From Stegostoma tigrinum (lineage: Eukaryota), in NCBI RefSeq assembly GCF_030684315.1, contig NC_081379.1:28240637-28304636 (forward strand): a stretch of 64,000 nucleotides of DNA, in the 5' to 3' direction. Below are positions 1,182 through 63,455 of this stretch, piece by piece. The notes under the pieces were generated by a model that worked only from the letters and a program-made list of their open reading frames with translations, was not told where the DNA came from and ran no database searches. The position numbers and the translations under genes are program-made. Each line of letters begins with the position of its first letter. Within the stretch, counting starts at the first letter, position 1.

Positions 1182-1413
1182 AAGATAGTAGGAACTGCCG
1201 ATGCTGGAGAATCCGAGATAACAAGATGTACGCAGCTGGATACACACAGCAGGCCAAGCAGCATCAGAACAGCAGGACAGCTGACGTTTCGAGTCTGGAT
1301 CCTTCTTCAGAAATCAGAAATCTCTGAAGATGGGCCCAGACCTGAAATGTCAGCTTCCCTGCTTCTCTGATGCTGCCTGGCCTGCTGTGTTTATTCAGCT
1401 CTACACCTATAAA
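1182..1413 (-). mobile_element. Penelope-like (family A) fold-back mini-insertion with HHR motif on both arms
   Basis: Matches the 3' end of the long PLE at 54583. Inverted arms meet at ~1311-1322. TSD ggtaaatcca at 1172-1181 and 1414-1423. Confidence 0.9.
1282..1313 (-). ncRNA. Minimal hammerhead ribozyme motif; core intact, weak stem II
   Basis: Minus strand reads ttCTGAAGA-aggatccagactc-GAAAC-GTC-ag. Confidence 0.55.
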
Positions 1414-1555
1414 GGTAAATCCAGCCTTATCCAAGCTGCAGAGTCCTCCTTACTCACATTAGGAGGTATATCTCACAGGCAGGTCAAGCAACAGCCTACA
1501 ATAGTCATACTCAGGGAATCAGACCTTCTATATCATGTCCCAAACAACACGATCA

Positions 1556-1760
1556 TGATAAAAACTGAAAGAACTGTGGATGCTGTAAATTGGGAACAAA
1601 CGGAAGTTGCAGGAAAAGCTCAGCAGGTCTAGCAGTAGATGTGAAGGGGAAAACAATTCAGAGTTAACATTTCAGTTCAAATCACCAGACCCAAAACATT
1701 GATTTTTTTTCTTCAGAGGCTGGCAGACCAGCTGAGCTTTTCCTGCAACTTCTCTTTTGG
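1556..1760 (-). mobile_element. Penelope-like (family B) fold-back mini-insertion
   Basis: Inverted arms gttgcaggaaaagctcagcaggtct / agaccagctgagcttttcctgcaac. Homologous to 37222 and 60352. TSD aacac(g/t)atca at 1546-1555 and 1761-1770. Confidence 0.75.
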
Positions 1761-1812
1761 AACACTATCACAATCCTTGGGTAGTTCTTCTCCAGCCAGC
1801 CAGAAACGGTGA

Positions 1813-1927
1813 CAGAGATAACGGGAAATGCAGATGCTGGAGAATCCGAGATAACAAAAAGTGTGGAGCTAGATGAACACAGCAGGCCAAGCAGCGTCTC
1901 AGGAGCACAAAAGCTGACGTTTCAGGC
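1813..1927 (-). mobile_element. PLE family A 3'-terminal stub, ending in HHR stem II
   Basis: gagataacgggaaatgcagatgctggagaatcc...aaaagctgacgtttcaggc aligns to 54583-54694. Confidence 0.85.
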
Positions 1928-1944
1928 AGGTCCAGGCTATATTC

Positions 1945-2003
1945 CTGAATACTATGAGCAATTTAGCATGACCAATCCACCTAGCCTGCAGATCTTTAGA
2001 CTG
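1945..2003 (-). mobile_element. HE1-type SINE fragment
   Basis: gcaatttagcatgaccaatccacctagcctgcagatctttagactg matches 47790-47836. Confidence 0.7.
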
Positions 2004-2039
2004 CAAAGTTCTGCATAGGGTCAATGTTTGGACTACAAC

Positions 2040-3762
2040 AATTCATGTTACACATGAACAATCTGAACAAAGGAACTGAGAGCATTGTTACTAAGTTTGT
2101 AGATGACACAAAGATAAACCATGAGATACAGAAGTAGAGTTAGGCCATTCAGCCCATCAGATCTCTGCTGCAATTCACTCATGGCTGATATGGTTCTCAA
2201 TCCATTCTCCTGGCTTCTCCCCTTTACCCTTGATCCCCTTACTAATCAAGAACCTCTTCAGCTCTGTCTTAAATACACTCAATGATGCGGACTCCCTGAA
2301 CCCTCTGTGGCAATGAGTTCCACAGGTTCACCACCCTCTGTCTGAAGGAATTCCTCCTCTCACAGTTCTAAAGGGTAGTCGTCTCATACTGAGGTTGTGC
2401 CCTTGGGTCCTAGTGTCTCTGACTGGTAGAAACATCTTCACGTCCACTCTATCCAGGCTTCTCGGAATCCTGTAAATTTCAACGAGCTGCCCCTCATCCT
2501 TCTAAATTCCATCACTTTCAGACTCAGTCTTCATCCACTCCTCATGTAACAAGCCCTTCAGCCCAGGACCATTTTAGGAAAGTTCTTCTGGACAGGCTCC
2601 AAGGCCAACACATATTTCCTTTGATGCAAGGCCCAAAAATGCTCACAATATTCCAAATGCTTTCTGACTAGAGCTATCTTTGTGTTATCTGCAAACTTAG
2701 CAACAAAGCCTTCATCCAGATCATTAATGTATAACATGAATAGTTGTGGTCCCAATGCTAACCCCTGCAGAGCACCAATAGTCACCAACCTATAGTATCC
2801 TGTCTTTTGCCTCCCTCCCTTCTTAAACAGCCACTTTCTAGTCCTCCGGGACTTCCCTCACTCAGTGATAGGCAGAGGGTCATGTAGTGTTGAGAAAGTG
2901 AGGAAGATGCAGAAGGACTTGGACAGGCTAGGAGAGTGGGCAAAGAAGTGGCAGGTGGAATATAACGTGGGAAAGTATAAGGTTATGCATTTTGGTAGAA
3001 TGAATTGAGGTTTAAACCATTTTCAAAATGGGGAATGGCTTTGGCAATCACAAGCACAAAGGGACTTAGGAGTTCTTGTTTAGGATTCCCTTAAAGTGAA
3101 TATGCAGGTTCAGTAGGCAATTTGGAAGACAAATGCAATGTTAGCATTCATTCCAAGACAGCCAAAATACAACAGCAAAGATGTATTGCTGAGGCTGTAT
3201 AAGGCTCTGATCAGTTGCAATTTTCTGGGCAGTTTTAGGCTCCATATCTAAGGAAGGATGTGTTGGCTTTGAGGGGATCCAGAGAAGGTTTACAAGAATG
3301 ATCCTTAGAATGAAGAGCTGGTCATGAGAGGAGCAGATCAGCATTCTGTGCTCAATGAAATTTAGAAGGGCAAGGAGGATCTCAGTGAAAATTACGAATA
3401 CTGAGAGGTCTGGATAGGGTGGACATGGAGAAAATGCTTTCACTAGTCGGGGAGGCCAGGACCTGAGTGCACAGCCTCAGAGGGACAACCCTTTAGAAAT
3501 GAGATGAGGAGGAATTCCTTCAGCCAGTGGCTGGTTAATCTGTGGAATATATTGTCACAGAAAGCTGTTGAGCTCACGTTGTTGAATGTATCTGAGACAG
3601 AGGTAAACAGGTTGTTGATTCATAAGAGGATCAAGGGTTATGGGGAGAAGGCAGGAGAATGTGACTGAGAAACATATCAGCCATGATCAAATAGTGGTGC
3701 AGACTCAATGGGCCGAATGCCTAATTCTGCTCCAAGATCTTGTTGCCCAGGGTCTTATGGTA
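2040..3762 (+). mobile_element. CR1-type LINE, 5'-truncated and degenerate, interrupted at ~2119-2870
   Basis: Translates to ..TKFVDDTKI, then after the interruption KMQKDLDRLGEWAKKWQVEYNVGKYKVMHFGR. CR1-like 3' end (gggccgaatgcctaattctgctcc..ggtcttatgg). Confidence 0.9.
2119..2790 (-). mobile_element. CR1-type LINE nested antisense inside another CR1, with internal deletion
   Basis: ORF 2558-2788 LQGLALGPQLFMLYINDLDEGFVAKFADNTKI is a CR1 RT motif. 3' tail at ~2120-2200. Confidence 0.85.
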
Positions 3763-3769
3763 AAAGAGT

Positions 3770-3912
3770 GATTCATTTTTGAGTACCAAGCATGAGTAAA
3801 GGGATATGGGGATAGGTGGGCAAATGGCATTGATATTAACTCTCAGCCATGATGGTAGAACAAAGTTGAAGGGGTGAGTGGCATAAACTTGTTTTTCTTT
3901 CTAATGTTCTTG
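3770..3912 (+). mobile_element. CR1 3'-end fragment, old
   Basis: aagggatatggggataggtgggcaaatgg..gccatgat..gaaggggtgagtggc resembles the other CR1 tails in the window. Confidence 0.6.
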
Positions 3913-4149
3913 CGAAGAATATCAAATGGTCAAAAAGTCATGCACGTAGGCATCCAATTTGAGAGCAAGGTTCTTAGTGAGAAATGCAATCTCAGAATAT
4001 CAGCCATGTCTTGTCAGGCAGATTTGTTGCATGGTGATGTCTTTCTCATTGATACGTGTTTCCCTGACCTCGTGGCATAGTCAAACCTGAACCGGTAAAA
4101 CTTGCTGAGGAAAAACAGGAAGTACAGTTGAGGCATAGAATGTGACCAT

Positions 4150-4460
4150 TGATTTGCAAAACGTGTTTAGTGTGCAATTGAGAAGACAGAAGGTAAATGA
4201 AATTTAATGCTGAAAAATGTGAACTGTTGCACTTCGATCAAAAATGTGAAATATAGCCTTATTAAAAGAATGGAATTAGGAGAAGTTTAGAAATAGACAT
4301 GAGAATGAAAGTAGTATATCATTTTCAGAAACTAGACTATTTGGCGAAGCTATTAAAAGCTTAATAGAGTGTGAGTACAAATTACCAGAGCAAAAGAATG
4401 CAGCTGTGGAAATTATGCTTAGACTTTACATTGTGTTGGTGAGACCACATCTCAAGTATT
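4150..4460 (+). mobile_element. Old CR1 RT fragment
   Basis: atgaaatttaatgctgaaaaatgtgaactgttgcacttc = MKFNAEKCELLHF; ttggtgagaccacatctcaagtat = LVRPHLKY. Confidence 0.65.
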
Positions 4461-4703
4461 CTTTTAAGATTCACATCGCATAAGTATATAGACATGTGTT
4501 AAAATGAGTATGTAACAGAGCAATTTCAATTTCGAAATTGAGGCTGGGCAGGAAACAGTGAAGTGATTATTAGTTGCCACTTAATGTCTCAACTGAATCT
4601 AAGGCAGGAAAGTGGGGAGAAAGACAATGGTGTAATGGTAATGATGCCGAGCTCATAATCCAAGGGGTCCAGGTTAATGCTCTGGGGACACAAGTTCCAA
4701 TTT

Positions 4704-5025
4704 GAGCAGCACGGTGGCTCAGTGCTTGGCACCGCTGCCTCACAGCATCAGGGACCTAGGTTCAATTCCAGCTCGGGCAACTGTCTGTGTGAAGTTTGCA
4801 CATTCTCCCAGAGTCTTTGTGGGTTTCCTCTGGGTAATCTGATTTACTCCCACAGTCCAAAGATGTGCCAGTCAGATGGATTGGACATCTAAATTGCCCA
4901 TTGTGTGCAGACTAGATGGATTTTCCATGGGAAGTGTAAGGGAAAGCGGGTCCTCTTCTTTGGAGGATTGCTGCAGTCTTGATGGGCTGAATGGCCTGCT
5001 TTGCCATTGTAGGGGTTCTATGAAT
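4704..5025 (+). mobile_element. HE1-type tRNA-derived SINE, preceded by the head of a second SINE type (~4622-4703)
   Basis: A box ggtggctcagtg, B box ggttcaattcc, core tcccacagtccaaagatgtgc, LINE-like tail gggctgaatggcctgct. Confidence 0.9.
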
Positions 5026-5061
5026 TGTATAATAGCAAACTTGGATTGTCAAATGAAATGA

Positions 5062-9931: not shown

Positions 9932-10008
9932 GATAGACAAACACAGTAGGTCAGGCAGCATCTAGAGGAAAGGAGCAGTCAATATTTTGGGTATTATCCA
10001 TCTTCAGG
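9932..10008 (-). mobile_element. Old PLE 3' stub ending at a degenerate HHR
   Basis: acacagtaggtcaggcagcatct..gtcaatattttgggtattatccatcttcagg; minus strand CTGAAGA..AAAT-ATT. TSD aaatcagct at 9923-9931 and 10009-10017. Confidence 0.6.
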
Positions 10009-11568: not shown

Positions 11569-11770
11569 AGAGAGATAATAGGAACTTGCAGATGCTGGAG
11601 AATCCGAGATAACAAGCTGTGTAGCTGGATGAATACAGCAGGCCAAGCAGCGTCTTAGGAGCAGGAAAGCTGACGTTTCGGGCCGAGGCCCTTCTGAAGA
11701 AATGTCAGCTTTCCTGCTCCTAAGATGCTTCTTGGCCTGCTGTGTTCATCCTGTTCCACACCTTGTTAAC
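11569..11770 (-). mobile_element. PLE family A fold-back mini-insertion
   Basis: Inverted arms join inside the HHR at ~11690-11700. TSD tttctagacttg at 11557-11568 and 11771-11782. Confidence 0.92.
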
Positions 11771-15808: not shown

Positions 15809-15819
15809 TTTGACAAGGT

Positions 15820-15995: not shown

Positions 15996-17849
15996 AAAAG
16001 CATGAGATTCCATCATTGTTAAGGCAGAAAGTAAGATGGCACTTTCTGTCTGTTGCAATGAGCAGAAATGAATAAGGGTAAACATTTGCCTGGAAAATCC
16101 ATGAATCAGTATAATTTGTGGCTAGAATACGTTTAAATAATTGATGAGAGAGCCAGGCATCATCCTGAAACTCAATGCTTGTGCAATCACCCAAAATCCA
16201 TGAAATTTAAAGCCCATTTTACAACATTAAGTCAGAAAACTAAGAACAATGGAGTAAATGCCAATGGTGTGATGTAAGTGAAAACAAATGTCACAATCAG
16301 GCATTGAAGTTGAAGGATCTTGCAAATTTCAGCTCTTTGTCTCCCCATTGGAATCTCTGTCTTCTGGGTGTTGTGGCACTTTTCTACGTCCATCTGTAAG
16401 TGTGGGATCTCCTGTTGAAGCTGCTTTCTAAAATTATGCTCACTCACTTACAGTTAAACTTTGAGCACCCAAGATGTATATTAGCAAGTGGCAGCAAGTG
16501 CTCACCTTTACAAAGGACCCAGGCCAGAAAATACCACAGGTAAAAGGCCTGGATCTGGGAAGGCAATTGCATCAGGGAGGATGCTGGCATCCCAGAGGAC
16601 TGTCACCTTCGTGCCTCCTCCTGAACTCAGTTCCGGATGGGTAAATCTGAGCTCAACCTCCATGCCCCATTGCCAACTGAAGCCCTTACATCATCACCGA
16701 ATGACCGCTGAAGGACCATTTAATGGCCCACACTGGTCAGGGCTATAATGGGTTGGCCCACCTGACTGGCAAAGTAGTGCAGCTTGGCTCTCAGTTTTGG
16801 AGAGAGATGATGTTGAGCAACCGAGAGCTAAATTGTCCTCCTGCAGGAGACAGAGTGCTGCTGCTGAGTCCAAGAACTACCAGCCTCTGGTGAGAATGTC
16901 TCCATTTGGGTTCAAATTGCCAGAAGAAGTTGGAAATCCTAAGTCTCACCTGGCATTCCTCATTTTCATGGGATTGGCATCGACATGGTTCATACATGTT
17001 TGATTCCTAAAGACAAGTGGCCTCCGCTGAAAATCTGAGTTTGGATTACTTTGAGTTTGAAATTCAGAGTGCGAAGATCAGACCAGGTAAGAGGGCATCT
17101 GTTCTCAGTGTATTTTCTTTTAATTAGCCAGGAGTCAACACACAAGGGCTGAGGTACTCTTGCAGGTGTAATCCCAAGTTTATTTGGGTTTGGAGGGGGT
17201 GGTCAGGGATCCTTTCAGGTGACTGGAAAGGAGAGATGAGGGCATCAGGTATCTCTTTTGAGGATAAAAGTCAGGGAGTTCTTTGTGGGGAGGACCATTA
17301 GGCACACAATGGGTTTGCTAATCTTGGACAAGACTGACCATAAATGTAAACACTTCACAACTGTCCATTGAGTTAAAGCCTGTCAATAAGTGTCACCAAG
17401 TATCCAGAAATGTCAACACTTACTGTCCTTTCAAGAAATGTCCAAAGTGCCAAGGTCTGTACTAATGAATGAGTGACTTTTTCGATGTAGTGTAGCTTTC
17501 AGTATAGAAATTCAAGTAAGAGAACTGGTTAATTTCCCATTTTTGCATGGTTATTTTTTGGTACATACTCAGTTGGTATGAGAAGTGAAGGAGGTAAGCG
17601 TTAGCGAGTTTTGAGAAGATTTGTAGCTCAGGTTGAGATTCTGGATGTAAGTTTGCTCGCTGAGCTGGAAGGTTCATTTTCAGACTTTCCATCACCATTC
17701 TAACATCATCAGTGAGCCTCCGGTGAAGCGCTGGTGTTATGTTCTGCTTTCTATTTATCTGCTTAGGTTTCCTTGGGTTAGTAACGTCATTTCCTGTGTT
17801 GAGGATGTCATTTCCTGTGTTGGTGATGTCATTTCCTGTTCTTTTTCTG

Positions 17850-18428
17850 AGAGAGTGGTAGATGGGCTCCAAATCAATGTGTTTGTTGATGGAGTTCCGG
17901 TTGGAATGCCATGCTTCTAGGAATTCTCATGCATGTCTCTGTTTGGCTTGTCCTAGGATGGATCTGTTGTCCCAATCAAAGTGGTGTCCTTCCTCATCTG
18001 TATGTAAGGATACGAGTGATAGTGGGTCATGTCGTTTTGTGGCTGGTTGATGTTCATGTATCCTGGTGGCTAGCTTTCTGCCTGTTTGTCCAATGTAGTG
18101 TTTGTCACAGTTCTTACAAGGTATTTTGTAGATGACGTTCGTTTTGTTTGTTGTCTGTATAGGGTCTTTTAAGTTCATTAGCTGCTGTTTTAGTGTGTTG
18201 GTGTGTTTGTGGGCTACCCTGATGCCAAGAGGTCCGAGTAGTCTGGCAGTCATTTCGGAAACGTCTTTGATGTAGGGGAGAGTGGTTATGGTTTCTGAGC
18301 CCATTTTATCTGTTTGTTTGGGTTTGTTGCTGAGAAATCGGCGGACTGTGTTCATTGGGTGCCCGTTCTTTTTGAATATGCTGTATAGGTGATTTTCTTC
18401 TGCTCTTCGAAGATCCTCTGTGCTGCAG
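17850..18428 (-). pseudogene. Inverted second copy of the PLE thumb plus GIY-YIG region
   Basis: ORF 17927-18448 is nearly identical to ORF 18793-19170 and ends at the same TGA. Confidence 0.9.
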
Positions 18429-18429
18429 A

Positions 18430-19300
18430 CCATCTTCAAGACCATCAATAATACCCTTTACTGGCGTAGCATTCATAAAAGAGGAGGAAAACAACAGCAA
18501 ACTGCCATTCCTAGATGTCACAGTAGAGCGAACAGCCAATGGGGAACTTCAAACCAGCGTTTACAGGAAAACAACACATACGGACCAAATACTGAACTAC
18601 AGGAGCAACCATCCCAACACCCACAAACGAAGCTGCATTAGAACATTATTCCAACGAGCCACCACACACTGCAGCACAAAGGAACTACGCAGAGCAGAAG
18701 AAAATCACCAATACAGCATATTCAAAAAGAACGGGTACCCAATGAACACAGTCCGCTGATTTCTCAGCAACAAACCCAAACAAACAGATAAAATGGGCTC
18801 AGAAACCATAACCACTCTCCCCTACATCAAAGACGTTTCCGAAATGACTGCCAGACTACTCGGACCTCTTGGCATCATGGTAGCCCACAAACCCACCAAC
18901 ACACTAAAACAGCAGCTAATGAACTTAAAAGACCCTGTACAGACAACAAACAAAACGAACGTCATCTACAAAATACCTTGTAAGAACTGTGACAAACACT
19001 ACATTGGACAAACAGGCAGAAAGCTAGCCACCAGGATACATGAACATCAACTAGCCACAAAACGACATGACCCACTATCACTCGTATCCTTACATACAGA
19101 TGAGGAAGGACACCACTTTGATTGGGACAACAGATCCATCCTAGGACAAGCCAAACAGAGACATGCATGAGAATTCCTAGAAGCATGGCATTCCAACCGG
19201 AACTCCATCAACAAACACATTGATTTGGAGCCCATCTACCACTCTCTCAGAAAAAGAACAGGAAATGATATCAACACAGGAAATGATATCACCAACCCAA
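18430..19300 (+). pseudogene. PLE RT C-terminus/thumb plus GIY-YIG endonuclease, disrupted
   Basis: EEENNSKLPFLDVTVER..SVYRKTTHTDQILNYRSNHP..NVIYKIPCKNCDKHYIGQTGRKLATRIHEH. Stops at ~18758 and 19168. Confidence 0.9.
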
Positions 19301-19356
19301 GGAAACCTAAACAGATAAATAGAAAGTGGAACATACACCAGCACTTCACCGGAGCC

Positions 19357-19396
19357 TCACTGATGAAGTTACCTAGAATGGTGACGGAACATCCGA
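19357..19396 (+). ncRNA. Mutated minimal HHR of the Poseidon-type PLE (second mutated copy at ~17680-17714 on minus)
   Basis: tcaCTGATGA-agttacc-tagaat-ggtgac-GGAAC-ATC. Stem II gttacc/ggtgac is retained; GAAA is changed to GGAA. Confidence 0.7.
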
Positions 19397-20221
19397 AAAT
19401 GAACCTTCCAGCTCAGCGAGCAAACTTACATCCCGAAGAGGTAAGAGTTGTGGGCATAAGTAGGCACTAAGCTGGCATAGAGGAATGAGGGGCCATGGCG
19501 TTTGGATAGAAGGAATTAAGTAGCATGGGTAGGGCATAGGAAATGTACGTGGCTGAGGGGAGTGTCAGGGATGTGACTGATGAGAGTTGGAAGAATGTTT
19601 CATCTTTCTGTCCTATTGGAGAGCTAGGGATCCATCTGGAGTTAAGACACTTTTGTTAGAGATAAGACACTGTTCGGGAGAGATAAGGCATCCTTCAACA
19701 ATCTGCAAAGGCATGTTTGTATGCAAAAGGTACATAAATTTATTGGGACTGGCAAAGTTGCCAAGGAACTAATCAAAATGAAGAGTTAACAAAAAAAAAC
19801 AATGCTAACTATTTTGGAGTACCTGTTCACATCAATCCATTCTAAGATTTGTGCTGCATGACTGACTTCTCAAACTATAATATTACTGTGACGTGCCTGC
19901 ATAATACATTGATCATGAGTGAAATGTTTGCTTACCTACATCATTGAGCACTTAGGTTAGGTGTTTATTTTCATTAGGGATTAGTTGAAGCAGTTTCATT
20001 TTACTGGATTTTTTTGTATGAATGAGAGGGTGAGGTGGAAGGTAGGATTAGCGATGAGGACAATGATGTGGAAGAACAAGGAGTTAAGATTTCAAGATTA
20101 GCATCGGAAATGGCAGATGATTCTGAGTTGGTTCATAAATCAAAGTTTAGCTTCTGACATTAAATTTCAACCTGTGAGGGACAGAAGTTGGGGAAAACTC
20201 CCACAAACAGCTATGACCAGA

Positions 20222-22318
20222 CCACCCACAACCTCATCACTTCAGGTGACCTCTCACCCACAGCCTCAAACCGAATCGTTCCCAAATGCCGCACCGCCTG
20301 CTTCTATCTCCTTCCCAAAATCCACAAACCTGACTGCCCTGGTCGACCCATTGTCTCCACCTTCTCCTGCCCCACCGAACTCATCTCCAATGATCTAGAC
20401 TCCATTTTCTCCACCCGGTCCAGGAACTCCCCATCTACGTCTGTGACAGTACCCATGCCGTACACCACCTCCAAAACTTCCGATTCCCTGGTCCCTAACA
20501 CCTCATCTTCACCATGGATGTCCAGTCCCTATACACTTGCATTCCCCTTTCAGATGGCCTAAAGGCCCATGTCTTCATCCTGTCCCGCAGGCCCGACCAG
20601 TCCCCCTCCACTGATACCCTTGTCCATTTATCTGAACTCGTCCTCACCCCAAGTAACTTCTCCTTCAATTCCTCCCACTTCCTACAGACAAATGGGGTGA
20701 CCATGGGTACCCGCATGGACCCAAGCTATGCCTGCCTCTTCATAGGATACGTGGAACAATCCCTTTTCCGAAGCCCTATCCCCCACATCTTCTTCCATAA
20801 TATTGATTGTATCAGCGCCGTTTTGTGCTCCCACAAGCAGCTTGAACAGTTCATCCACTTCACTGACACCTTCCACCCCAACCTTAAGTTCACCTTGACC
20901 ATCTCCGATACCTCTCTCCTTCCTGGACCTCTCTGTCTCCATCTCTGGCAACCACCTGGAAGCCGATATCCATTTCAAGCTCACTGACTCCCACAGGTAG
21001 CTAGAATGTACCGCCTCTCACCCACCATCCTTTGCCTCCGCTGCATCTGCTCGTTTTTCGAGGGCCACAACTTCCTCTACACAGTGGTCAAAAACACCTT
21101 TGACCATGTCTCCCGCATTTCCCACACCTCATCCCTCACACCCCCTCCCCACAATATCAACAAAGACAGAATTCTCCTTCATCCTCACGTACCACCCCAC
21201 CAAACTCCGGATCCAACACATCATCCTCTGCCACTTCCACCATCTGCAATCTGACCCCACTACCAAGGATATTTTACACCACGCCCCCATCCTTATCTGC
21301 CAGAGGGACCGCTCTCTCCAAGACTCCCTCCTCCACTCCACACTCCCCACCAGCCCCATCACCCCAGGCACTTTTCCCTGCAACTGCAGGAAGTGCTACA
21401 CCTGCCCATACACCTCCCCCTTCACCCCCATCCCAGGCCCCAAGAAAACCTTCCACATCAAACAGATGTTCACCTGTACATCTGCTAATGTGGTATATTG
21501 TATCCGCTGTTCCCGATGAGGCCTCCTCTACATCAGGGAAACCAAGCAGCAGCATGGAGATAGTAGGAACTGCAGATGCTGGAGAATCTGAGATAACAAG
21601 GTGTGGAGCTGGATGAACACATCAGGCCAAGCAGCATCTGAGGAGCAGGAAAGCTGACATTTCAGAAGGGTCCAGGCCTGAAGCATCAGCTTTCCTGCTC
21701 CTCTGCTGCTTGGCCTGCTGTGTTCATCCAGCTCTATACCTTGTTATCTTGGAGACCACTTTGTGGAACACCTACACTCAGTTCGTGGCGAACGACTATA
21801 CCTGCCAGTTGTGAACCTTTTCAACTCCCCCTCCCACTCATTGAATGACATGTCATTCCTGGGCCTCCTCCAATGCCACAACAATGGCACCCAAAGGTTG
21901 CAGGAACAGCAACTCATATTCTGCTTGGGAACCCTGCAGCCCAACAGTATCAATGTGGACTTCACAAGCCTCAAAATCTCCCCACCCCCCCCCCCCCCAA
22001 CTCATCCCAAAACCTGCCCAGCTCATCCCTGCCTCACAAACCTGTCCGTCCTTTTTCCCACCTATCCACTCCTCCCACCTCAACCCCCACCCACACCTCC
22101 TACCTACCAGCCCCATCCCCACCTCCTTGGCCTGCCCGTCTCCTCTCCACCTATCTTCTCCTTTATCCATCTTCTATCTCCCTCCCCCTCTCTATTTATT
22201 TCAGAATCCCCTTCCCCTCCCCTATTTCTGAAGAAGGGTCTACACCCAAAACATCAGCCTTCCTGCTCCTCTGATGCTGCTTGGCCTGCTGTGTTCATCC
22301 AGCTCCACACCTTGTTAT
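20222..22318 (+). mobile_element. Neptune-type PLE (family A), 5'-truncated and frameshifted
   Basis: [43 protein letters not shown], Cys linker CNCRKCYTC, VVYCIRCSR. C-rich 3' UTR. Degenerate HHR at ~22228-22256. TSD ctatg(a/t)ccaga at 20211-20221 and 22319-22329. Confidence 0.93.
21557..21749 (-). mobile_element. PLE family A fold-back mini-insertion nested in the GIY-YIG region of a family A copy
   Basis: Interrupts ETKQQ..GDHFVEH. tggaga is repeated at 21555-21560 and 21750-21755. Confidence 0.9.
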
Positions 22319-22419
22319 CTATGTCCAGATAGCGTGCTTTGTCTGATACTGCTTCAGGAATAAGTGTTGACAGGGCACCAGGCCTTGCTGCTCTGCTCAT
22401 CTCTGACCTTTCACCATCA

Positions 22420-33750: not shown

Positions 33751-33851
33751 ACAAATGCAGAGAATGATGGAGAATCTCAGCAGGTCCAGCAGCATCTATG
33801 GAGGGAGAAACACAGAGAATATTTCAAGTTCAGTCTAATTCTTCTTTAGAA
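33751..33851 (-). mobile_element. Old PLE 3' stub ending at a degenerate HHR
   Basis: ggagaatctcagcaggtccagcagcatctatggag..tatttcaagttcagtctaattcttctttag. Candidate TSD ttc(t/a)tggg at 33743-33750 and 33852-33859. Confidence 0.55.
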
Positions 33852-36963: not shown

Positions 36964-37178
36964 GAGATAGTAGGAACTGCTGATGATGGAGAATCTGAGA
37001 TACCAAGATGTAGAGCTGGATGAACACAGCAGACCAAGCAGCATCAGAGGAGCGGGAAAGCTGATGTTTCAGGCCTAGACCCTTCTTCTGAAAGGCATCC
37101 AGACCCGAAACGTCAGCTTTCCTGCTTCTCTGATGCTGCTTTGTCTCCTGTGTTCATTCAGCTCTACGCCTTGTTATT
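36964..37178 (-). mobile_element. PLE family A fold-back mini-insertion
   Basis: Arms join at the HHR core (~37088). TSD cta(t/a)atttttg at 36953-36963 and 37179-37189. Confidence 0.9.
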
Positions 37179-37221: not shown

Positions 37222-37360
37222 CAAAACAAAAACCAAAAGAATGGTGGATGCTGGAAATCAGAAACAAAAATGTTCCAGTTTTTAAGGGTGGCTAGATCCA
37301 AAACGTTAACTCCGATTTCTCTCCACAGATGCTGCCACTTCTGCTGAGGTTTTCCAAAAC
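37222..37360 (-). mobile_element. PLE family B mini-insertion (tail plus inverted HHR-bearing arm)
   Basis: aaaaaccaaaagaatggtggatgctggaaatcagaaac + agggtggctagatccaaaacgttaact. TSD tttc(t/c)gaaaactt at 37209-37221 and 37361-37373. Confidence 0.75.
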
Positions 37361-40535: not shown

Positions 40536-40725
40536 AGATAATGGGAACTGCAGATGCTGGAGAATTCCAAGATAATAAAATGTGAGGCTGGATGAACACA
40601 GCAGGCCAAGCAGCATCTCAGGAGCACAAAAGCTGACGTTTTGGGCCTAGGCCCGAAACGTCAGCTTTTGTGCTCCTGAGATGCTGCTTGGCCTGCTGTG
40701 TTCATCCAGCCTCACATTTTATTAT
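40536..40725 (-). mobile_element. Young PLE family A insertion forming a spacerless 154-bp palindrome
   Basis: Arms 40572-40648 and 40649-40725 have one mismatch; centre cct|agg. TSD tatattgaactgag at 40524-40537 and 40723-40736. Confidence 0.95.
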
Positions 40726-41369
40726 ATTGAACTGAGCATGGCAGCCTTGGAGTTTACATTAACTTCATTCCTTTAAGATGCCCAATGACTTTAACAGTAA
40801 TAATAATAATTTCTTTCTGAGAGATCATCAAGAGAATTTTGGATATGGCTGAATTTCATAAACATGACTCACTATCACATTGGTTCAAAACTACTTACAC
40901 TGGCTAAAGAAGGGGCAGAAAGGTACTATTGTCCTTTGTTGGATTTTCAGCTTCCAAACTGAGGTTCAATGTGTTTAACTCGCATTACCCCTGTGCTGGA
41001 TGTACAAAGAATCAACCCAACCTCAATGAACTGACACAGGCATGGCTCTGATTGGAGTAAAGATCTGCAAAGACATCTTCTCCTACAAGTCAAAGAGATT
41101 GGAAAGTCAAAAGAAAGCAGCAAAAACCCAGTAGCCATCCAAGAACAAAGCAAAGCCACAGGAGACACTCTGAAAATTCTAACTAAATATTTTAAAACAA
41201 CACCTTTTGCTAGGGAGCTCACACACACACAAAATTTTAGTAAAACGAACACTATATCCACCCATTGACAACAAACGGATAATCCAAATTTTAGGATTAA
41301 AGTAGAGTCCAAGTGATTTCCTGGAATTTCCATTACTAGTCTCAAACATGTATAAGCTAAATACCCAGT

Positions 41370-42158
41370 CACTTGTGCTGAAAACAGCAAAAGCTGGAGA
41401 TCACAGCAGGTCAGACAGCATCCATAGAGAGACAGCAAGCTAATGTTTAAAGTCTAGATGACCCTTCAGAGCTGAATCAAAGCAGCATTTCACTTGTACC
41501 TCATCGAATCTGGTGTTTTGTATCACTGCACCCAACGTGGCCTACTCTGCGCTGGAGAAACTGAACACAGACTGGGTAATGGCTTTGCAGAACACCCCCT
41601 GTCCATGGACAAGCATGACCCTAACTTTCTCGTCATCGGTCGTTTTAATACAGTGTCCTGCTCACGTGCTCACTTGTCTGTCCTCAGCATGCTCCAGTGA
41701 ATCAAAGCGCAAACAACATTTCATCTTCAGACTAAGCACTTTACAGCTTTCTGGACTTAACATTGAGTTCAGCATCTTCGGATTGTGCGCCAGCTCCCAT
41801 TCCTTCCCCTTCTTTTAACTTTACTTGTTACGTTGTCTGTCACCATGTCCTTTCTCCCCCTTGCTCACCCCAGTGGGACTCTGTTCTTTCCAGTTTGGCA
41901 GTTAGACACACCATTGTTCTGCCATTCTCACATTCCAATCACTTAATCTGAACCATCAACATCCTTTCTTCCACAGCACACTAAACTCCACATCCTTCCC
42001 AACCATAGCATAAATGCTGCCCCATCTACACTTCACCTCAGCTCTGAAGAGTCATCGAAACTTGAAACACTAGCTTGCTCTCCCTCCATGGATGCTGTCT
42101 GACCCACTGTGATCTCTAGCATTTGTTGTTTTCAGTTCGGTTGCAGTAATTTGCTCCA
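41370..42158 (+). mobile_element. PLE family C: GIY-YIG relic with inverted terminal arm
   Basis: FTCTSSNLVFCI..AGETEHRLGNGFAEH..FIFRLSTLQLSGLNIEF. 41378-41475 is inverted relative to ~42038-42135. Degenerate HHR ctgaagagtcatc..gaaacactagc. acccagt repeated at 41363-41369 and 42159-42165. Confidence 0.85.
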
Positions 42159-43070: not shown

Positions 43071-43275
43071 GTGTTAATGGGAATTACAGACGCTGGAGAA
43101 TCCAAGATAACACAGCACAGAGCTGGATGAACACTGCAGGCCAAGCAGCATCTTGAAGGGTCTAGGCCCAATATGTCAGCGCTTTTCTGATGAAGGGTCT
43201 AGGCCCGAAAGGTCAGCTTTTGTGCTTCGAAGATGCTGTTTGGACTGCTGTGTTCATCCAGCTCCACATTTTGTT
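43071..43275 (-). mobile_element. PLE family A fold-back mini-insertion with a tandem HHR duplication in the plus arm
   Basis: tgaagggtctaggcccaatatgtcagc followed by ctgatgaagggtctaggcccgaaaggtcagc. TSD aaaac(a/t)gcacagtgt at 43060-43074 and 43276-43290. Confidence 0.9.
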
Positions 43276-43354
43276 AAAACTGCACAGTGTGCCTCTTTTA
43301 CTTTACAGATGACTCAGTGGACTTATGAAGCTGTCTTCTAGCTACAAATAAGAC

Positions 43355-54162: not shown

Positions 54163-54678
54163 CATAATATAAAGAATTTATTAAAATAAAAATTCAGATT
54201 AAATATTATAAAATAAGAATATAATTTAGCCCTAATCTAGATCATGAGGAGAAAAAATAACCCAACTATCATTTGGCATATCGTGCTTGCTCTCATTGTA
54301 ATTTGTGATGTCTTACTACATTTGAGCATAAAATTGCAAGCTTTTCTGTACACCTCACCAAGAATGCAGTGAAAACATATTTGCTACTTGGTTATTTTTG
54401 AACATTTACATCTTCCACAATTGGTCCTTAAAGAGTCATAAATTCACCAGTTTCATCTTGCTTGCAGTAATGTACTTTTCTTGTTTATTAAGTGCTTGTC
54501 TATCGTACACTGGGACAACATAATTAATGTTGGTATCTCACATGGACTCTCTAGATGACTGTGCAAACAGTATTCAACATAAGTGATAATGGGAACTGCA
54601 GATGCTGGAGAATCCAAGATAGTAAAGTGTGAAGCTGGATGAACACAGCAGGCCCAGCAGCATCTCAGGAGCACAAAA

Positions 54679-54712
54679 GCTGACGTTTCGGGCCTAGACC
54701 CTTCATCAGAGA
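54679..54712 (-). ncRNA. Minimal type I hammerhead ribozyme motif with intact core
   Basis: ctCTGATGA-a-GGGT-ctag-GCCC-GAAAC-GTC^ag. Loopless palindromic ACGU stem III implies a dimeric form. Stem I is only ~2 bp, so activity is unproven. Confidence 0.75.
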
Positions 54713-54939
54713 GGGGGATGGGGTGAGGGTTCTGGAATAAATAGGGAGAGAGGGGAAGGCAGACCGAAGATGGAGAGAAAAGAAGATAGGTGGAGAGGAG
54801 AGTATAGGTGGGGAGGTAGGGAAGGGATAGGTCAGTCCAGGGAAGACGGACAGGTCAAGGAGGTGGGATGAGGTTAGTAGGTAGGAAATGGAGGTGCGGC
54901 TTGGGGTGGGAGGAAGGGATGGGTGAGAAGAAGAACAGG

Positions 54940-56418
54940 TTAGGGAGGCAGAGACAGGCTGGGCTGGTTGTGTGGTGCAGTGGGGGGAGGGGACGAACTG
55001 GGCTCGTTTTGGGATGCGGTGGGGGAAGGGGAGATTTTGAAGCTGGTGAAGTCCACATTGATACCATTGTGCTGTAGGGTTCCCAAGCGGAATATGAATT
55101 GCTGTTCCTGCAACCTTCGGGTGGCATCATTGTGGCATTGCAGGAGGCCCATGATGGACATGTCGTCTAAAGAATGGGAGGGGGAGTGGAAATGGTTCAT
55201 GACTGGGAGGTGCAGTTGTTTATTGCGAACCGAGCGGAGGTGTTCTGCAAAGCGGTCCCCAAGCCTCCTCTTCGTTTCCCCAATGTAGAGGAAGCCACAC
55301 CGGGTACAATGGAGACAGTATACCACATTGGCAGATGTGCAGGTGAACCTCTGCTTAATATGGAAAGTCATCTTGGGGCCTGGGATAGGGGTGAGGGAGG
55401 AGGTGTGGGGGCAAGTGTAGCATTTCCTGTGGCTGCAGGGGAAGGTGCTGGGTGTGGTGGGGTTGGAGGGCAGTGTGGAGCAAACAAGGGAGTCACAGAG
55501 AGAGTGGTCTCTCCGGAAAGCAGACAAGGGTGGGGATGGAAAAATGTCTTGGGTAGTGGGGTCAGATTGTAGATGGCGGAAGTGTCGGAGGATGATGCGT
55601 TGTATCCGGAGGTTGATGGGGTGGTGTGTGAGAACGAGGGGGATCCTCTTTGGGCGGTTGTGGCGGGGGTGGGGTGTGAGGGATGTGTTGCGGGAAATGT
55701 GGGAGACCCGGTCAAGGGCGTTCTCGACCACTGTGGGGGGAAAATTGCGGTCCTTGAAGAACTTGGACACCTGGGATGTGTGGGAGTGGAATGCCTCATC
55801 GTGGGAGCAGATGCGGCGGAGGCGGAGGAATTGGGAATAGGGGATGGAATTTTTGCAGGAGGGTGGGTGGGAGGAGGTGTATTCTAGGTAGCTGTGGGAG
55901 TCGGTGGGCTTGAAATGGACATCAGTTACAAGCTGGTTGCCTGAGATGGAGACTGAGAGGTCCAGGAAGATGTGGGATGTGCTAGAGATGGCCCAGGTGA
56001 ACTGAAGGTTGGGGTGGAAGGTGTTGGTGAAGTGGATGAACTGTTCGAGCTCCTCTGGGGAGCAAGAGGCGGCGCTGATACAGTCATCAATGTAATGGAG
56101 GAAGAGGTGGGGTTTGGGGCCCATGTAGGTGCGGAAGAGGGACTGTTCCACGTAACCTACAAAGAGGCAGGCATAGCTGGGGCCCACGCGGGTGCCCATG
56201 GCCACCCCCTTTGTCTGTAGGAAGTGGGAGGAATCAAAAGAGAAGTTGTTGAGGGTGAGGACGAGTTCGGCTAGGCGGATGAGGGTGTCGGTGGAGGGGG
56301 ACTGGTCGGGCCTGCGGGACAGGAAGAAGCGGAGGGCCTTGAGGCCACCTGCATGCGGAATACAGGTGTATAGGGACTGGACGTCCATGGTGAAAATGAG
56401 GTGTTGGGGGCCAGGCAA
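54940..56418 (-). CDS. PLE reverse transcriptase plus GIY-YIG endonuclease; uninterrupted but lacking the N-terminus
   Basis: [41 protein letters not shown] linker, VVYCLHCTRCGFLYIGETKRRLGDRFAEH. The frame stays open to the truncation at ~56453. Confidence 0.93.
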   Translation of the reverse strand: MPGPQHLIFTMDVQSLYTCIPHAGGLKALRFFLSRRPDQSPSTDTLIRLAELVLTLNNFSFDSSHFLQTKGVAMGTRVGPSYACLFVGYVEQSLFRTYMGPKPHLFLHYIDDCISAASCSPEELEQFIHFTNTFHPNLQFTWAISSTSHIFLDLSVSISGNQLVTDVHFKPTDSHSYLEYTSSHPPSCKNSIPYSQFLRLRRICSHDEAFHSHTSQVSKFFKDRNFPPTVVENALDRVSHISRNTSLTPHPRHNRPKRIPLVLTHHPINLRIQRIILRHFRHLQSDPTTQDIFPSPPLSAFRRDHSLCDSLVCSTLPSNPTTPSTFPCSHRKCYTCPHTSSLTPIPGPKMTFHIKQRFTCTSANVVYCLHCTRCGFLYIGETKRRLGDRFAEHLRSVRNKQLHLPVMNHFHSPSHSLDDMSIMGLLQCHNDATRRLQEQQFIFRLGTLQHNGINVDFTSFKISPSPTASQNEPSSSPPPTAPHNQPSLSLPP

Positions 56419-57620
56419 TTGGAAGTTCTGGATGAGGTGGAGGGCGTGGGTGGTATTCCAGAACCCTCACCCCATCCCCATCTCTGATGAAGGGTCTAGG
56501 CCTGCAACGTCAGCCAATATTCAACATAATTTGTCTGATTTGACCATTTAACTATTTCATTTATCCCTCAAAAAAACTTGCTTAATACGTTAAAGATTCT
56601 GCTTGCTATTTGTCTTTTGTTCATTATTTCTATGAAAGGTCCTGCAGAATAATTTCAAAGTGGCTTCTCACTTCAACAAAACACACCAGTGAAATTTCTA
56701 ACTAAAACGCCCTCTGGCAAGGACATTTCAGTTTTCCTTGGGGCTAAATTAAAATCCCATGCCAAAATACTTGCGCATACATATAAACACTGATAAATAG
56801 CTCTGCTTGTATGCCTGCTGAGTAAAATTGCGCTAATTAAATGTACTTTATTGACCAAAATCAGTAATTTAGCAAAAAAAATGACCTGTTAATTATTCCA
56901 TCATCCAGCCAGCTGTCCGTGTTACTGTGAAAGATATATGCACTGGATCATGCGGTTCTCCAGAGCTTTTCTGATCACTGCGCGACTGTAACAAACTGGC
57001 TTCATTTCAAAAACAAAAATATGGAATAAATTTTTTAATCTTTTGTTGATAAACTGATCAGTTGACACTGATATTTGTTGATAAGTAAAACTGGAGTATT
57101 CAGAGGACCTTTTGGGACATCAACAATTTCTCTCCAAGACAGTGAGCAAATGTTTAAGCAGAACCAGGGGCATCTTTGCTTTATCTGTCAAGCAGGCTGA
57201 TGCATCCAGCAAAAAAGGCTAAGGTACAGTTGTGATGAACCTTGGCTTGCTTCTTCTTTAATCCCAAATGCGGCAAACCTCTATTTGTTTACAATATTGA
57301 CAGTATCGAGCAGAAACAAAGGACAGGAAAAGAACCTAACAATGAATCATGTAATTAAGACCCAAGTTGTAAAGACAGATTAAACTAATTAGAAAGTAGG
57401 TTCTTCTCAAGAATTCAAATCCTGAGGTGCAATATTCTGGGAAAAGTGGAATGCCAAGACAAATGTCAAATTATTGTACCAATACTCAAGCACTCAGCTG
57501 CTCTCCTCACTATTCAAACAGATATATTAACTCTCAAGTAAAAAATCGGTTAGTCCCTTCGGATAGTGGAAAGAGTCATTTAAAAACAGCACTCTGCAAA
57601 AACATGTACAACATTAGATC

Positions 57621-57729
57621 CTTCATCAGAGATGTGCTCCTGAGATGCTGCTTGGCCTGATGTGTTCATCCAGCTTCACACTTTGTTATCGTGGATTCTC
57701 CAGCATCTGCAGTTCCCATTATCTCTGAC
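57621..57729 (+). mobile_element. PLE family A 3' stub with a 12-nt inverted HHR-core piece
   Basis: cttcatcagaga + tgtgctcctgagatgctg..gttcccattatctc. Perfect TSD tacaacattagatc at 57607-57620 and 57730-57743. Confidence 0.92.
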
Positions 57730-59000: not shown

Positions 59001-60351
59001 TCGATGTCACATGTTTTCTCACAGTACATTTCATGTGCCAAGTTTTGCGCTCAAGTTATTCCACCAGATTGTCTTGTGACCCTATTCGTTAAAGTCTCAA
59101 ATGAACAAATTAATACTGGGATTCGATATTTTTATCATGTAACCTAGAATTTATGGGTTGACTATTGCTGTCAGCAGAACGCCTGCTCTTCTAGAATATG
59201 ACTCAAACTATAGTTTTCTCATATCCTTCCCGGAAAAAGGGGGGAAGAAAAGGGTTAAAAACCAATTGCAGCTCCTGGTCTGTGTGTCTTGGTGGGTTGG
59301 TAAGCCAATCTTTTGGCACTTCTGCACTGCAGGTAATGCAAAGCTCTTCCAGTCTGAATGTTAGAAGTCAACCATTAAAAAGAAACAGGACAAAGGCCTG
59401 TCAGCTAACTTGGAGTGTTAAATCTCAAAATCAACTGCTTTACTAACAAGATCAGCATTACTGGGACTATCCAACTTGACAGCACAAACTCTCCACCAGC
59501 TATTCATCATGAGACTCAAAGACTGACTCATAAATCTTTCTACTCAATCCAGATTTCAAATCTGGACATGTATGTCATATTTTGTTGACTTTTCTCACAT
59601 TTCATAGCTAATAAACTCATCCTTTATAAAGCTCAAGAAAGCCTGATTAATTTGATTCCTATAAAAACAAGGAATAATTAGATGGGAAAAAATTAATCTG
59701 AGGGAAGGGATTTTGTTTTCTAAATTAACTTTGTTGTGGCTGAGAGAAGGGTTGGATTAAGAAAGGGGGCTCATTCCTCACCCAGAAGAACCATAGTGGG
59801 CTTGGTCGGCGGCAGGGTGGGGGCGGAGGATCCCCTTTTGAATTGTAACAAATTGAGGATCCTCGGCCAGGGACCAGTTGTAACAGTGAAAACTTATACT
59901 AGAATAGATTATATTGGCAAATCAAAACAAACATCAATATTTCACCTCAGCGCTTCCTGAAGAATAAAGCTTCCCTGTCTCAAACCTGGCTCACCATAGC
60001 TCCTCAGTGACTGATACCTTCTTATCCAACAAAAAACAACTAATCATTATTATTTTCATCTGGATTTCTGACAGATTGTTTTTTGAACATGTTAGAAACA
60101 CATTAACTACCTTATTATACTAAAATATGCCATTGGTACTTTTGTTGTAAAGGAAAATTATTTTAAACAATGCATATAGTCTCAGTAGCAGGTTTAAAAT
60201 AATCAAAGTCAAATTCAGATACATTTGCCTTTACTCTTGTAAATTAAATGACCAGTATCTCTCCTTAATTATTTATGTAAATCAAACAAAGTAACCTGAC
60301 TTCTTGAATTCTAAACATTAATTTCTTCATGTCAATATAGTTGTAAATGGA

Positions 60352-60566
60352 AAATAAAACTGTAAAAACTGCAGATCCTGGAAATCAGAAACAAAAACAG
60401 AAATTGCTGAGAAAGCTCAGCAAGTCTGGCAGCATCTGGGAAGAGAAATCAAAGTTAATGCTTCGGGTTGAATGACACTTCCACTAGACCCAAAACGTTA
60501 ACTCTGATTTTTGTCTACAGTTACTGTCAGACCTGCTGAGCTTTTCCTGCAAATACTGTTTTTGTG
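60352..60566 (-). mobile_element. PLE family B fold-back mini-insertion
   Basis: Arms aaagctcagcaagtctggcag / ctgtcagacctgctgagcttt join inside the HHR remnant (~60480). TSD gttgt(a/g)aatgga at 60340-60351 and 60567-60578. Confidence 0.85.
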
Positions 60567-62044
60567 GTTGTGAATGGAGTATTTTCCACAATTCTAGCTG
60601 AAACAGCATCACTAATACTGGTGGTGGTTACTTTAAGTCAGGACAGTAAGCTTTCTTCATCTCTGGAACAGTGTCGAGAGCCCAGCCTCCATAAAATGTG
60701 TTCAACAATATCACAATTGCAAGTTTTCAGTTTAATTTGAACCAAATGTATTCAAGCCAATTCCCAATCTGGACAGTGACAAAAGCTAAACATTATTTGT
60801 CATTGTTAGATTATGTATTGGATGCTATACTATTTTGGTATAAAGCACATACACATTTAAATCAGTTATTGAGTCGTCTTCCGTGAACTTGATGCAATTT
60901 AAGATCTGACTGCTATTCATTCTTTGCCTGTGACTCTCAGTTTAATTCAAGGTGGCATTGGTCTGCATGGTTTTATTTCCACCATTGTGCTTGGATGAAT
61001 GTCAGCCAACAGTGCTTTATTTTAGGATACTGAAGCGGCTGAGGCATTCAAATCCAACATGTTCTATTAACCCACACAAAAATTCCAGTCCTCCTCCACT
61101 ACTGAAAGCATAAAATTCAGACATAGAGAGTCTGTTTTAGGACTAACATTATGTCTGCATTTCTCCTGACACCAGCAGAAGTCAGCCCACCATGCATTTT
61201 CTGGTGCAAGCTGCAATGAATGCCATGCTGGTGAGAGCATTAGTGCACAGACTGCCAGCATCTGCCAGAAAACAAACAGTGTGGGTAACTCAAAGCATCT
61301 TGGTAGTCCTGCTGTTTTAATGCTAAACCGCCCAGTTAACTCTGTTTTCTAATCAAGCCTGGCTGTAATCGCACTAAATCTTCACTGATTTTCAGTTAGC
61401 TGCTGATTGATTCCTTTTGGCTACCAATACAATTGTACAAATTTTTGACATTTTCTAAAGTTCTTCAACGTTACTGAAGTCTACAGGGAGTGGTGTGGCA
61501 GGTGTGGGAGGACTTGATCCTAACATTGAGGCTTCTGTCTAAATAAGATGCTCCCAGACAAGGGCACACTAGTAGACATTTTTCTTGGGATACAGTATGA
61601 CTGGGAGAACGAGCTTAGTAGGACAAAGTGCTATGAGACCGAGCAGGAGAACTCCCAGCAGAAGAAAGTATCTGCCCAGAATGTGAGGAAGCAATTCTAA
61701 TACCTGAATCTCATGTCCATGCTTTCCCACTGTGGAGGGTGACATTGAACACACAGTATGGCTTTTTCAGTGCTGCATGTCCATTCTAAGAGGTACCACA
61801 ATCAAAATGGATCCAACTATCTTAATATCCACTATTCTACGAGCAAATGCAATAAACCATGCAGGTAATAGCCCATTCTCCTGGCAGCTGTTGACACTTC
61901 CCTTCCGTTGGATTCTGCTTTGCCATCTGTATTTCAGCTACTGGAAGAAAACAGAGAGTAGCTACTGGACTTTAACAACATGGTTCGTAGCTCTGATGTA
62001 CAACTGACAGACATGGGCAGCAGGTATATAATGAAAACCATAAC

Positions 62045-62940
62045 AGTACTCATGTGTCTGCTGCCCTTGTCCTTCCAGATGGAAAAGGTCAAGGGTTTAG
62101 AAAATGCTGTCAACTGATCTTTGGTGAATTTCTGCACTCCATCTTGTAGACAGCACACAGTGCTGCTACTGAGCATCGGTGATGGAGGGAGTGAATGCTT
62201 GTGGATGTGGTGCCAATCAAGCGGACTGCTTTGTCTTGGATAGTGTCAAGCTTCTTGAGTGTTGTTGGGACTATACCCATCCAGACAAGTGGTGAGTATC
62301 CCATCACAGTCCCGACTTATGCCTTGTACACGGTGGACAGGTTTTGGGGAGTCAGGAGGCGAATTACTCGCCACAGTATTCCTAGCATCAGGCCTGCTCT
62401 TGTAGCTGCTGTGTTTATGTGGTGAGTCCAGTTGAGTTTCTGCTCAATGAAAACACCCAGGATGTTGTTTTAGTGGGGTATTCAGCGACAGTAACACCAT
62501 TGACTATCAGGGGTGATGTTAGATTGCCTCTTATTGGAGATGGTCATTGTCTGGAATTTGATTGATGCCAACGTTAGTTGCCACTTGTCAGTCCAAGCCT
62601 GGATATTGTCTAGACCTCAATGTATTCAAACACAGACTGCTTCAATATCTGAGGAGTCATGAATGATGCTGAACATTGTTCACTGATGAATGAACATTCC
62701 CACTTCTGAGTTTACAATGGAGGGAAGCTGATTGATGAATCATAGTTGGGCAAAGGACACCACTCTGAGGAACTCCTGCAGAGATGTTCTGCAACTGAGA
62801 AGACAAATCTCCAACATCTACGGCCATCTTTCTATGTGTCAGATACGACTCAAGCCAGTGGACAGTTTGCCTCTTGATTCTCACTTATTCAAGGTTTACT
62901 CGGGCTCCTTGAAGCCACACTCGGTTGAATGCAGCCTCCA
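62045..62940 (-). mobile_element. LINE RT fragment, second family (CR1/L2/Jockey-related)
   Basis: WLESYLTHRKM..ISAGVPQSGVLCP; YSPLVWMGIVPTTLKKLDTIQDKAVRLIG..SLHHRCSVAALCAVYKM. Confidence 0.85.
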
Positions 62941-63325
62941 CAAGATTTCTTCACCATCACTGTATTCTTGTATTTGCAATCTGCTCTTCTACTGGTCAGT
63001 TTGGAGCTCTTGGATATGCAAAAGAGGAACCAAGAAAATATTATGGTGATGTGTGCGGCAGGAACAGTAAGAGGTACATTGTGGAATGAGGAATTAGTGG
63101 GATGTGAAAATTTGAGGCAAGAGGATTGTGCCATCTTGGACAGTTTCAACCCTGCCACCAGCGCCAACCTCTGCCAAGGGCAGATGGTGAGACTGTGATG
63201 TCCATGCATCCCCGACATAACATCTGCTTAGAAAAATCAACCACCTCCAGTTAGAAGCTAGCTTGTTCTTCAAGACAGAAGAAATTGTGTCAGTGAATGT
63301 GGTGCAGCGTGTTTGGATGATGTGG

Positions 63326-63455
63326 CTCTCCGATGAAAGGTCTAGACCCGAAATGTCAGCTTTTGTGCTCCTGGGATGCTGCTGGGCCTGCTGTGTTCAT
63401 CCAGCCTCACATTTTATTATCTTGGATTCTCCAGCATCTGCAGTTCTCATTGTCA
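63326..63455 (+). mobile_element. PLE family A 3' stub starting at the HHR
   Basis: ctctCCGATGAaaggtctagacccGAAATGTCagc..ggattctccagcatctgcagttctcattgtc. No clear TSD. Confidence 0.88.

Follow-up and report, generated by a model that had tools for sequence, protein, structure and literature searches.

Penelope-like insertions in the window

The window analysed here, a stretch of 64,000 nucleotides from Stegostoma tigrinum (assembly GCF_030684315.1, contig NC_081379.1, positions 28,240,637 to 28,304,636), contains members of several families of Penelope-like elements (PLEs), including short insertions, hereafter referred to as minis, that consist of a single PLE 3'-end piece (an arm) standing alone or of two arms joined head to head. 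All 14 places at which the initial annotation had reported such copies hold PLE 3'-end pieces; the annotation had not recorded the target-site duplications (TSDs), the TATA-like box, the older long copy at 21748-22322 or the third family, at 17601-19437. Minis are independent retrotransposition insertions. They probably arise when reverse transcriptase (RT) starts internally near the 5' end of the RNA and runs off a putative transcription start located directly before a hammerhead ribozyme (HHR). The features on which the analysis of families A and D relies are the following.

54582..56514, minus strand: young family A long copy, 5'-truncated (reference), with a 61-nt inverted arm at 56454-56514 and a TSD of 15 bp
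54737..54743, minus strand: TATA-like TATTTAT, 30 nt ahead of the breakpoint peak
54713, minus strand: position -31, breakpoint peak and putative transcription start
54679..54711, minus strand: minimal type I hammerhead motif, read by eye (CUGAUGA, 4-bp stem II, GAAAC-GUC; stem I of 2 bp)
17601..19437: family D PLE, two long arms joined head to head, with an HHR and coding remnants of the RT end and of a GIY-YIG-like domain

Family A positions are numbered from the HHR cut site, the C of GUC being 0 (window 54682, minus strand), and those of families B and D from the C of CTGA (-27 in family A). Natural copies served as reference sequences throughout.

The parent is an endonuclease-containing (EN+) Penelope-like element, with an RT, a C-terminal GIY-YIG domain, a tandem of pseudo-long terminal repeats (pLTRs), a tail and an HHR motif. 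The RT domain of the parent open reading frame (ORF) matched RVT_1 with E=4e-6 (27.1 bits, slightly below the cut-off of 29.6), and the translation contains RT motifs, including YIDD. A GIY-YIG motif lies close to the end of the ORF, PF01541 matching one of the three ORFs scanned (E=9e-4, 19.9 bits, below the cut-off of 22.6); the Pfam scan returned nothing for three of the five ORF pieces. The partial tandem (pLTR) and the inverted 5'-truncated copy are both present, as in EN+ PLEs, and the 3' ends of family A are bimodal (~+65 and ~+100), which fits a tail of 30-40 nt at one end. The minimal HHR motif was recognised by sequence in families A, B and D; an Rfam scan of the window returned no hammerhead match, only sub-threshold microRNA (miRNA) hairpin matches on palindromes.

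Family A breakpoints form a cliff at position -31

Family A was surveyed in 1.464 Mb of the 3.2-Gb genome, comprising the window, 200 kb of its flanks and twelve 100-kb blocks picked blind to their content. This sample contained 302 arms, forming 91 head-to-head pairs and 120 solos; minis accounted for 129 of the 211 elements, at a density of 73/Mb off the window's contig and 155/Mb around the window. Only arms that reached at least +31 and started by +71 were counted; because of this criterion, very short arms and arms lacking that stretch (e.g., window 56454-56514) were missed, and hazards downstream of ~+30 are underestimated. Breaks were called against the five nearest long natural copies. 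We rejected an alignment artefact due to subfamily divergence as the origin of the breaks because of this mode of calling and because both subfamilies align upstream.

Analysis of the 180 arms reaching -27 revealed that 75 stop at -35 to -27, against 2.3 expected (0.046 versus a background of 0.0014 stops per nt; P ~5e-91). The frequency of stops per nt rises from 0.0026 (+31 to +11) through 0.0058 and 0.0076 to 0.0156 (-11 to -26) before reaching the value of 0.046. Beyond this point, only 2 of 105 arms stop at -60 to -36 (0.0008 per nt), and the frequency is ~0.0013 per nt out to -1200. The initial annotation had proposed that breakpoints cluster at the HHR. The excess over chance was confirmed, but its shape is a ramp followed by a cliff at the ribozyme 5' edge, with no hump around the ribozyme. 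Calls at -35 to -32 in pairs are partly inflated by chance matches with the partner arm; solos, which are free of this inflation, break at -34 to -28 in 25 of 120 cases, with modes at -30 and -31. There was no peak at the HHR cut site, only 3 of the 302 arms breaking at +1, which supports the earlier view that the template had, for the most part, not been cut at GUC. The share of minis varies strongly among families, minis being most of family B (25/30), ~60% of elements in family A and ~10% of arms in family D.

The break site lies 30 nt past a TATA-like box in three families

In family A, TATTTAT begins 30 or 31 nt ahead of -31 in 77 of 96 long arms, and the site at -31 reads in both subfamilies as what we take to be an initiator. 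In family B, a TATAAA-type box is located at -33 from CTGA in all five long copies, followed by TCAGTT, and 25 of 30 arms break at -6 to -3, the mode of -3 corresponding to TATA+30. The putative start and the ribozyme 5' edge are 1-2 nt apart in both families. Family D provided a discriminating test, prompted by the element at 17601..19437, in which the TATA-like GATAAATA lies 47 nt ahead of CTGA. This box predicts a break at -17, whereas the ribozyme edge is near -3, and the pile is found ~13 nt outside the motif. The prediction, made after one pair, was tested on 50 new arms (drawn from 6,889 pattern matches), of which 5, representing four insertions, break at -18/-17 (0.59 expected; P=3e-4), none at -15 to -4 and 9 at scattered positions from -22 to -61, while 36 run past -75. 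In all, 45 of the 50 arms read through the ribozyme edge as well as the TATA+30 site. The break pile is likely to mark a predicted transcription start 30 nt past a TATA-like box, directly before the ribozyme.

A G precedes many of the starts at -31

Genome-wide, a G was found ahead of 5,035 of the 7,443 non-C starts at -31 in young family A; in the controls, G occurred in 34 of the first 100 matches at -32 and in 31 of the first 100 at -26. Inspection by eye of 23 loci with a G left 10 unexplained by the partner arm or the TSD, 11 ambiguous and 2 that are substitutions in long copies. In one element (L155/L156), two successive forward pieces both begin at -31 after a G. In the part of the L1 and SVA study considered here, untemplated G is taken as cap copying (PMC4859970). 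Long copies did not display the G scar expected from strand transfer, either at -32 (463 matches, ~45 G in the first 100) or at -33 (390 matches, ~46 G in the first 100), a test that is blind to scarless transfer.

Minis are independent insertions, and their arms are correlated

TSDs of 11-18 bp (mode, 14-15) flank 65 of the 91 family A pairs and none of 91 decoys, and 63 of the 65 short pairs have distinct pairs of breaks, confirming the earlier proposal that the copies are independent and do not stem from one master of the miniature inverted-repeat transposable element (MITE) type. Homogeneous copies of a master with a fixed interior, as expected for MITEs, were thus not found, and the arms are pieces of a retroelement.

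The two arms of a pair are generally both short (65 pairs) or both long (23 pairs). Only 3 pairs are mixed, versus 35.8 expected (P=1e-18), and one of these is the upstream end of a full-length arm. The arms have unlike 3' ends, one at +65 and one at +100, in 88 of the 91 pairs. In 78 of the 91, the arms are distinguished by no more than 2 of up to 13 diagnostic sites, versus ~30% of random pairs. In 36 of 57 short pairs, the +65 arm extends further upstream. HHR palindromes supply the centre of a minority of the junctions between arms (e.g., window 40536). We infer that RT was primed twice, on a single RNA or on RNAs from the same source, and that end joining with 0-6 nt overlaps or small inserts followed; this is based on the +65/+100 pairs, the common variants, the reach of the +65 arm and the extension of both strands from two internal start sites reported in vitro for an anole element (see below).

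Long copies pass -31 freely, often twice. Among 55 distinct second-pass arms of more-than-unit copies (60 loci less 5 duplicates, selected by ORF-side sequence alone), 33 reach -27 and none of these stops at -35 to -27, in comparison to 75 of 180 on the first pass (P=1.6e-7). The remaining 22 stop earlier, spread from +101 to -24, and favour neither model cleanly. Second-pass stops are frequent between +78 and -19 and at -61 to -111; they could arise where RT, having completed one lap of a circle, runs into its own cDNA. In one long copy (L260, G000:C1:8807621-8810654), +173 is followed immediately by +1, the end that ribozyme cutting is predicted to leave, a single hint that may be the trace of a cleaved or circular template. 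In another element (L144/L145, G000:C4:68972040-68976298), both arms run into the ORF and are joined head to head at -302/-39.

Proposed mechanism and alternatives

The reading that we favour, with a probability of roughly 0.75, is that RT begins internally, close to the 5' end of the RNA, and runs off at its capped start, TATA+30, just before the ribozyme. The endonuclease would nick both target strands ~14-15 nt apart, and each target 3' end would prime RT on the same RNA, or on RNA of one source, one at +65 and the other at +100. Both cDNAs would run to the RNA 5' end (-31), where RT would often copy the cap, leaving the extra G. The two cDNA ends would then be trimmed and joined head to head via short homology, or one would join the target directly to give a solo. 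Templates of the minis could be full mRNAs or outward transcripts from dead copies. Long and more-than-unit copies would come from a template without a 5' end at -31, for which either a ribozyme-cut circle or a read-through tandem RNA would serve. The defined template 5' end expected of such a strong-stop-like product is apparent in the cliff, in the correlation within pairs and in all three families.

A more specific version, which we regard as tentative and at somewhat less than even odds, holds that two RNA forms exist: a capped linear RNA giving strong-stop minis and a ribozyme-cut circle giving long and more-than-unit copies. The HHR would then be the switch between a dead end and a productive route, and a dimeric RT would prime both strands on one RNA (+65 and +100). 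If so, genomes alone would map the transcription start of each family and its ratio of linear to circular templates.

Several observations weigh against run-off from a capped start. About half of the G cases could derive from the partner arm or the TSD; in old family A the G excess before A(-31) was absent (26 G, 55 A and 19 T in the first 100), and in family B a G was present in an ambiguous 7 of 16 non-A cases. Since start and ribozyme edge nearly coincide in families A and B, only family D separates them, with a case of 5 arms obtained by a search pattern blind to breaks inside the ribozyme. The start and the cap are deduced from motifs, by comparison with consensus sequences that we take as standard. 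The break falls downstream of -27 in 122 of the 302 arms, so trimming or early stops are needed. In the available text on D. virilis, the Penelope promoter is TATA-less, with an intron between start and ribozyme (PMC2377424, PMC4209133), and the TATA-to-ribozyme layout is therefore not universal. Finally, the RT start site of the anole enzyme shows no strand difference in vitro (PMC11167929), in contrast to the asymmetry found here in 88 of 91 pairs.

A template 5' end created at -31 by processing, through a protein nuclease or another cut, would account equally well for the cliff and the pair correlation, and agrees with the old subfamily lacking a G excess. We nevertheless consider it unlikely, since the cut would have to hit TATA+30 in three families of differing ribozyme spacing and a cut end has no cap to yield the G.

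The initial annotation had attributed the breaks to stalling or template switching of RT at a folded or dimerised hammerhead. The climb of the hazard across the motif (+31 to -26), the junctions centred on ribozyme palindromes (-19/-19, -12/-12 and +1/+1) and the 20 of 55 second-pass arms that stop between +78 and -24 speak for this proposal, which we nonetheless find rather improbable. RT moves from +100 to -31, so the peak, at the far (5') edge, follows copying of the motif. Moreover, the region folds no better than shuffled sequences (z=+0.20), with a stem I of 2 bp, and no second pass stops at the peak (0/33). Family D mostly reads through the ribozyme and has its pile at -17, independent stalls would have produced many more mixed pairs than the 3 observed, and the G is left unexplained.

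Subsequent loss of the centres of long head-to-head insertions, by cruciform or slippage deletion, would shorten both arms together and is in line with the larger share of minis in the old subfamily. It is very unlikely, because the same break site is seen in solos with flush TSDs, and 23 of the 77 short arms that are at least 96% identical to long copies already belong to the peak. Long palindromes have also survived (23 pairs; family D), and neither the cliff nor the G receives a reason. We give equally little credit to the fold-back of a single cDNA that copies itself, a model related to the self-priming to which inversions in EN+ PLEs are ascribed in the available text (PMC3846280; PMC8557442). 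It agrees with the common haplotype of the arms and with the one long and one short 3' end of 88 of 91 pairs. Starting from the +100 arm, however, it requires this arm to reach furthest upstream, yet in 36 of 57 short pairs it is the +65 arm that reaches further; the cliff at -31 is unexplained, and fold-back would at most describe the joining step. Amplification of a few short non-autonomous masters (MITE- or SINE-like) has hardly any credibility: a few junctions do recur at distant loci (L151/L159, L152/L154/L179 and L153/L158), but these bear different subfamily variants, minis occur across young and old subfamilies, and the diversity of junctions disfavours it.

Relation to known systems

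Retroviruses and long terminal repeat (LTR) elements form minus-strand strong-stop DNA, a short cDNA whose priming site lies near the 5' end of the RNA and whose synthesis ends by run-off at the cap. The minis would likewise be run-off cDNAs but, unlike strong-stop DNA, target-DNA-primed and integrated directly, and the long copies analysed here show no cap-G scar of strand transfer. In L1 twin priming, RT starts from both nicks in the target, and an inversion with a TSD results; L1 arms copy different parts of the RNA, whereas the PLE arms analysed here copy the same stretch head to head.

The inverted and solo pLTRs, tails, TSDs, opposite-strand HHR pairs and a putative TATA/initiator (Inr) are already known. 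According to the available text on EN+ PLEs (Penelope/Poseidon and Adineta vaga; PMC3846280, PMC8557442), these elements share the RT with C-terminal GIY-YIG, the partial tandems and the inverted 5'-truncated copy; they also have a 30-40 nt tail, a TSD, solo pLTRs and palindromes at inverted junctions, and a putative TATA + Inr is recorded in one pLTR. The same text differs from the present analysis in offering no breakpoint statistics, pile at TATA+30, extra G or two insertion classes. In vitro, the anole Poseidon PAc nicks both strands and extends them, its tail being set by two internal RT start sites (PMC11167929); HHR cleavage is dispensable, and a shorter RNA 5' end yields a shorter product. 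That work used synthetic templates, and its main text does not analyse genomic 5' ends. The part considered of the study of minimal HHRs in PLE pLTRs (PMC4209133) describes the same motif, dual HHRs on opposite strands 100-700 bp apart and many single ones, and proposes a circular template made by ribozyme cutting for more-than-unit copies, but does not link truncation points or a transcription start to them. Animal non-LTR retrozymes are, in the portion considered, also non-coding PLE derivatives with a type I HHR (bioRxiv 10.64898/2026.07.22.740005), consisting of head-to-tail tandem units, whereas minis are head-to-head or solo. In the literature covered, chiefly that outside subscription journals, Repbase/Dfam notes and supplements, we found no PLE cliff at a start site, G or two classes.

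The cliff at TATA+30, the all-short or all-long pairs and the use of one RT start site by each arm bear on how the inverted and tandem structures of PLEs originate and on the purpose of the HHR; they narrow down the possible cycle and lead to predictions that apply directly to the anole system already established in vitro. The results would also account for a very abundant class of short hairpin repeats, which could be misfiled as MITEs or miRNA precursors; extrapolated from 73/Mb, family A minis number roughly 2e5.

Other elements and minor observations

The remaining PLE-derived elements of the window are listed below.

1182..1410: family A (old subfamily) head-to-head mini, arm breaks -31/-28, TSD 13 bp
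1556..1760: family B head-to-head mini, TSD weak
1813..1927, minus strand: solo arm of family A that spans +100 to -11, no TSD found
9932..10008, minus strand: old diverged PLE stub with decayed HHR, possible TSD of 9 bp
11569..11770: family A head-to-head mini, -22/-7, TSD 12 bp
21557..21753: family A head-to-head mini, -7/-23, clean TSD absent
21748..22322, plus strand: older long arm of family A, 5'-truncated (-581 to +65), in which TATTTAT and the CCCCTATTT start motif are present
33751..33847, minus strand: old diverged PLE stub
36964..37177: family A head-to-head mini, ~-30/-11, TSD weak
37222..37360, plus strand: family B rearranged mini, TSD 13 bp
40536..40729: near-perfect palindrome of family A with the HHR stem II loop at its centre, -19/-19, TSD 14 bp
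43071..43276: family A head-to-head mini, +17/-28, with a 32-nt insert that is a duplicated HHR piece, TSD 15 bp
57621..57727, plus strand: arm of family A that spans +7 to +100, plus an inverted HHR piece of 12 nt, TSD 14 bp
60352..60566: family B head-to-head mini, TSD of at least 12 bp
63326..63455, plus strand: family A solo arm from -31 with a G in front, no TSD found

Two inverted arms (56454-56514 and 57621-57632) have 3' ends inside the ribozyme (+3 and ~-19), beside the TSD; these ends are not at +65 or +100 and are unexplained by the run-off model. The palindromes at 1271-1363, 21606-21734 and 36999-37178 score as miRNA-like hairpins, below Rfam thresholds, and may be a source of false miRNA calls or of real hairpin RNAs.

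Directly past +103 in L115 and L121-L150, a branch-point-like TTTTAAC, a pyrimidine tract and a CAG acceptor stand right before the ORF ATG, possibly a 5'-untranslated-region intron kept in genomic copies, with its donor not located. Other family A derivatives have the head-to-tail organisation of retrozymes: internally deleted units of ~270-640 nt form tandems in L119, L120, L256, L258, L277 and L278, with arrays of the same type at G000:C1:104860920-104862797 and C1:110519803-110520715. Each unit carries the promoter motif and the HHR, as retrozyme-like non-autonomous derivatives would. Finally, the window contains at 41378-42135 an inverted pair from another old PLE-like family, with HHR-like ends and ~560 nt of another repeat in between.

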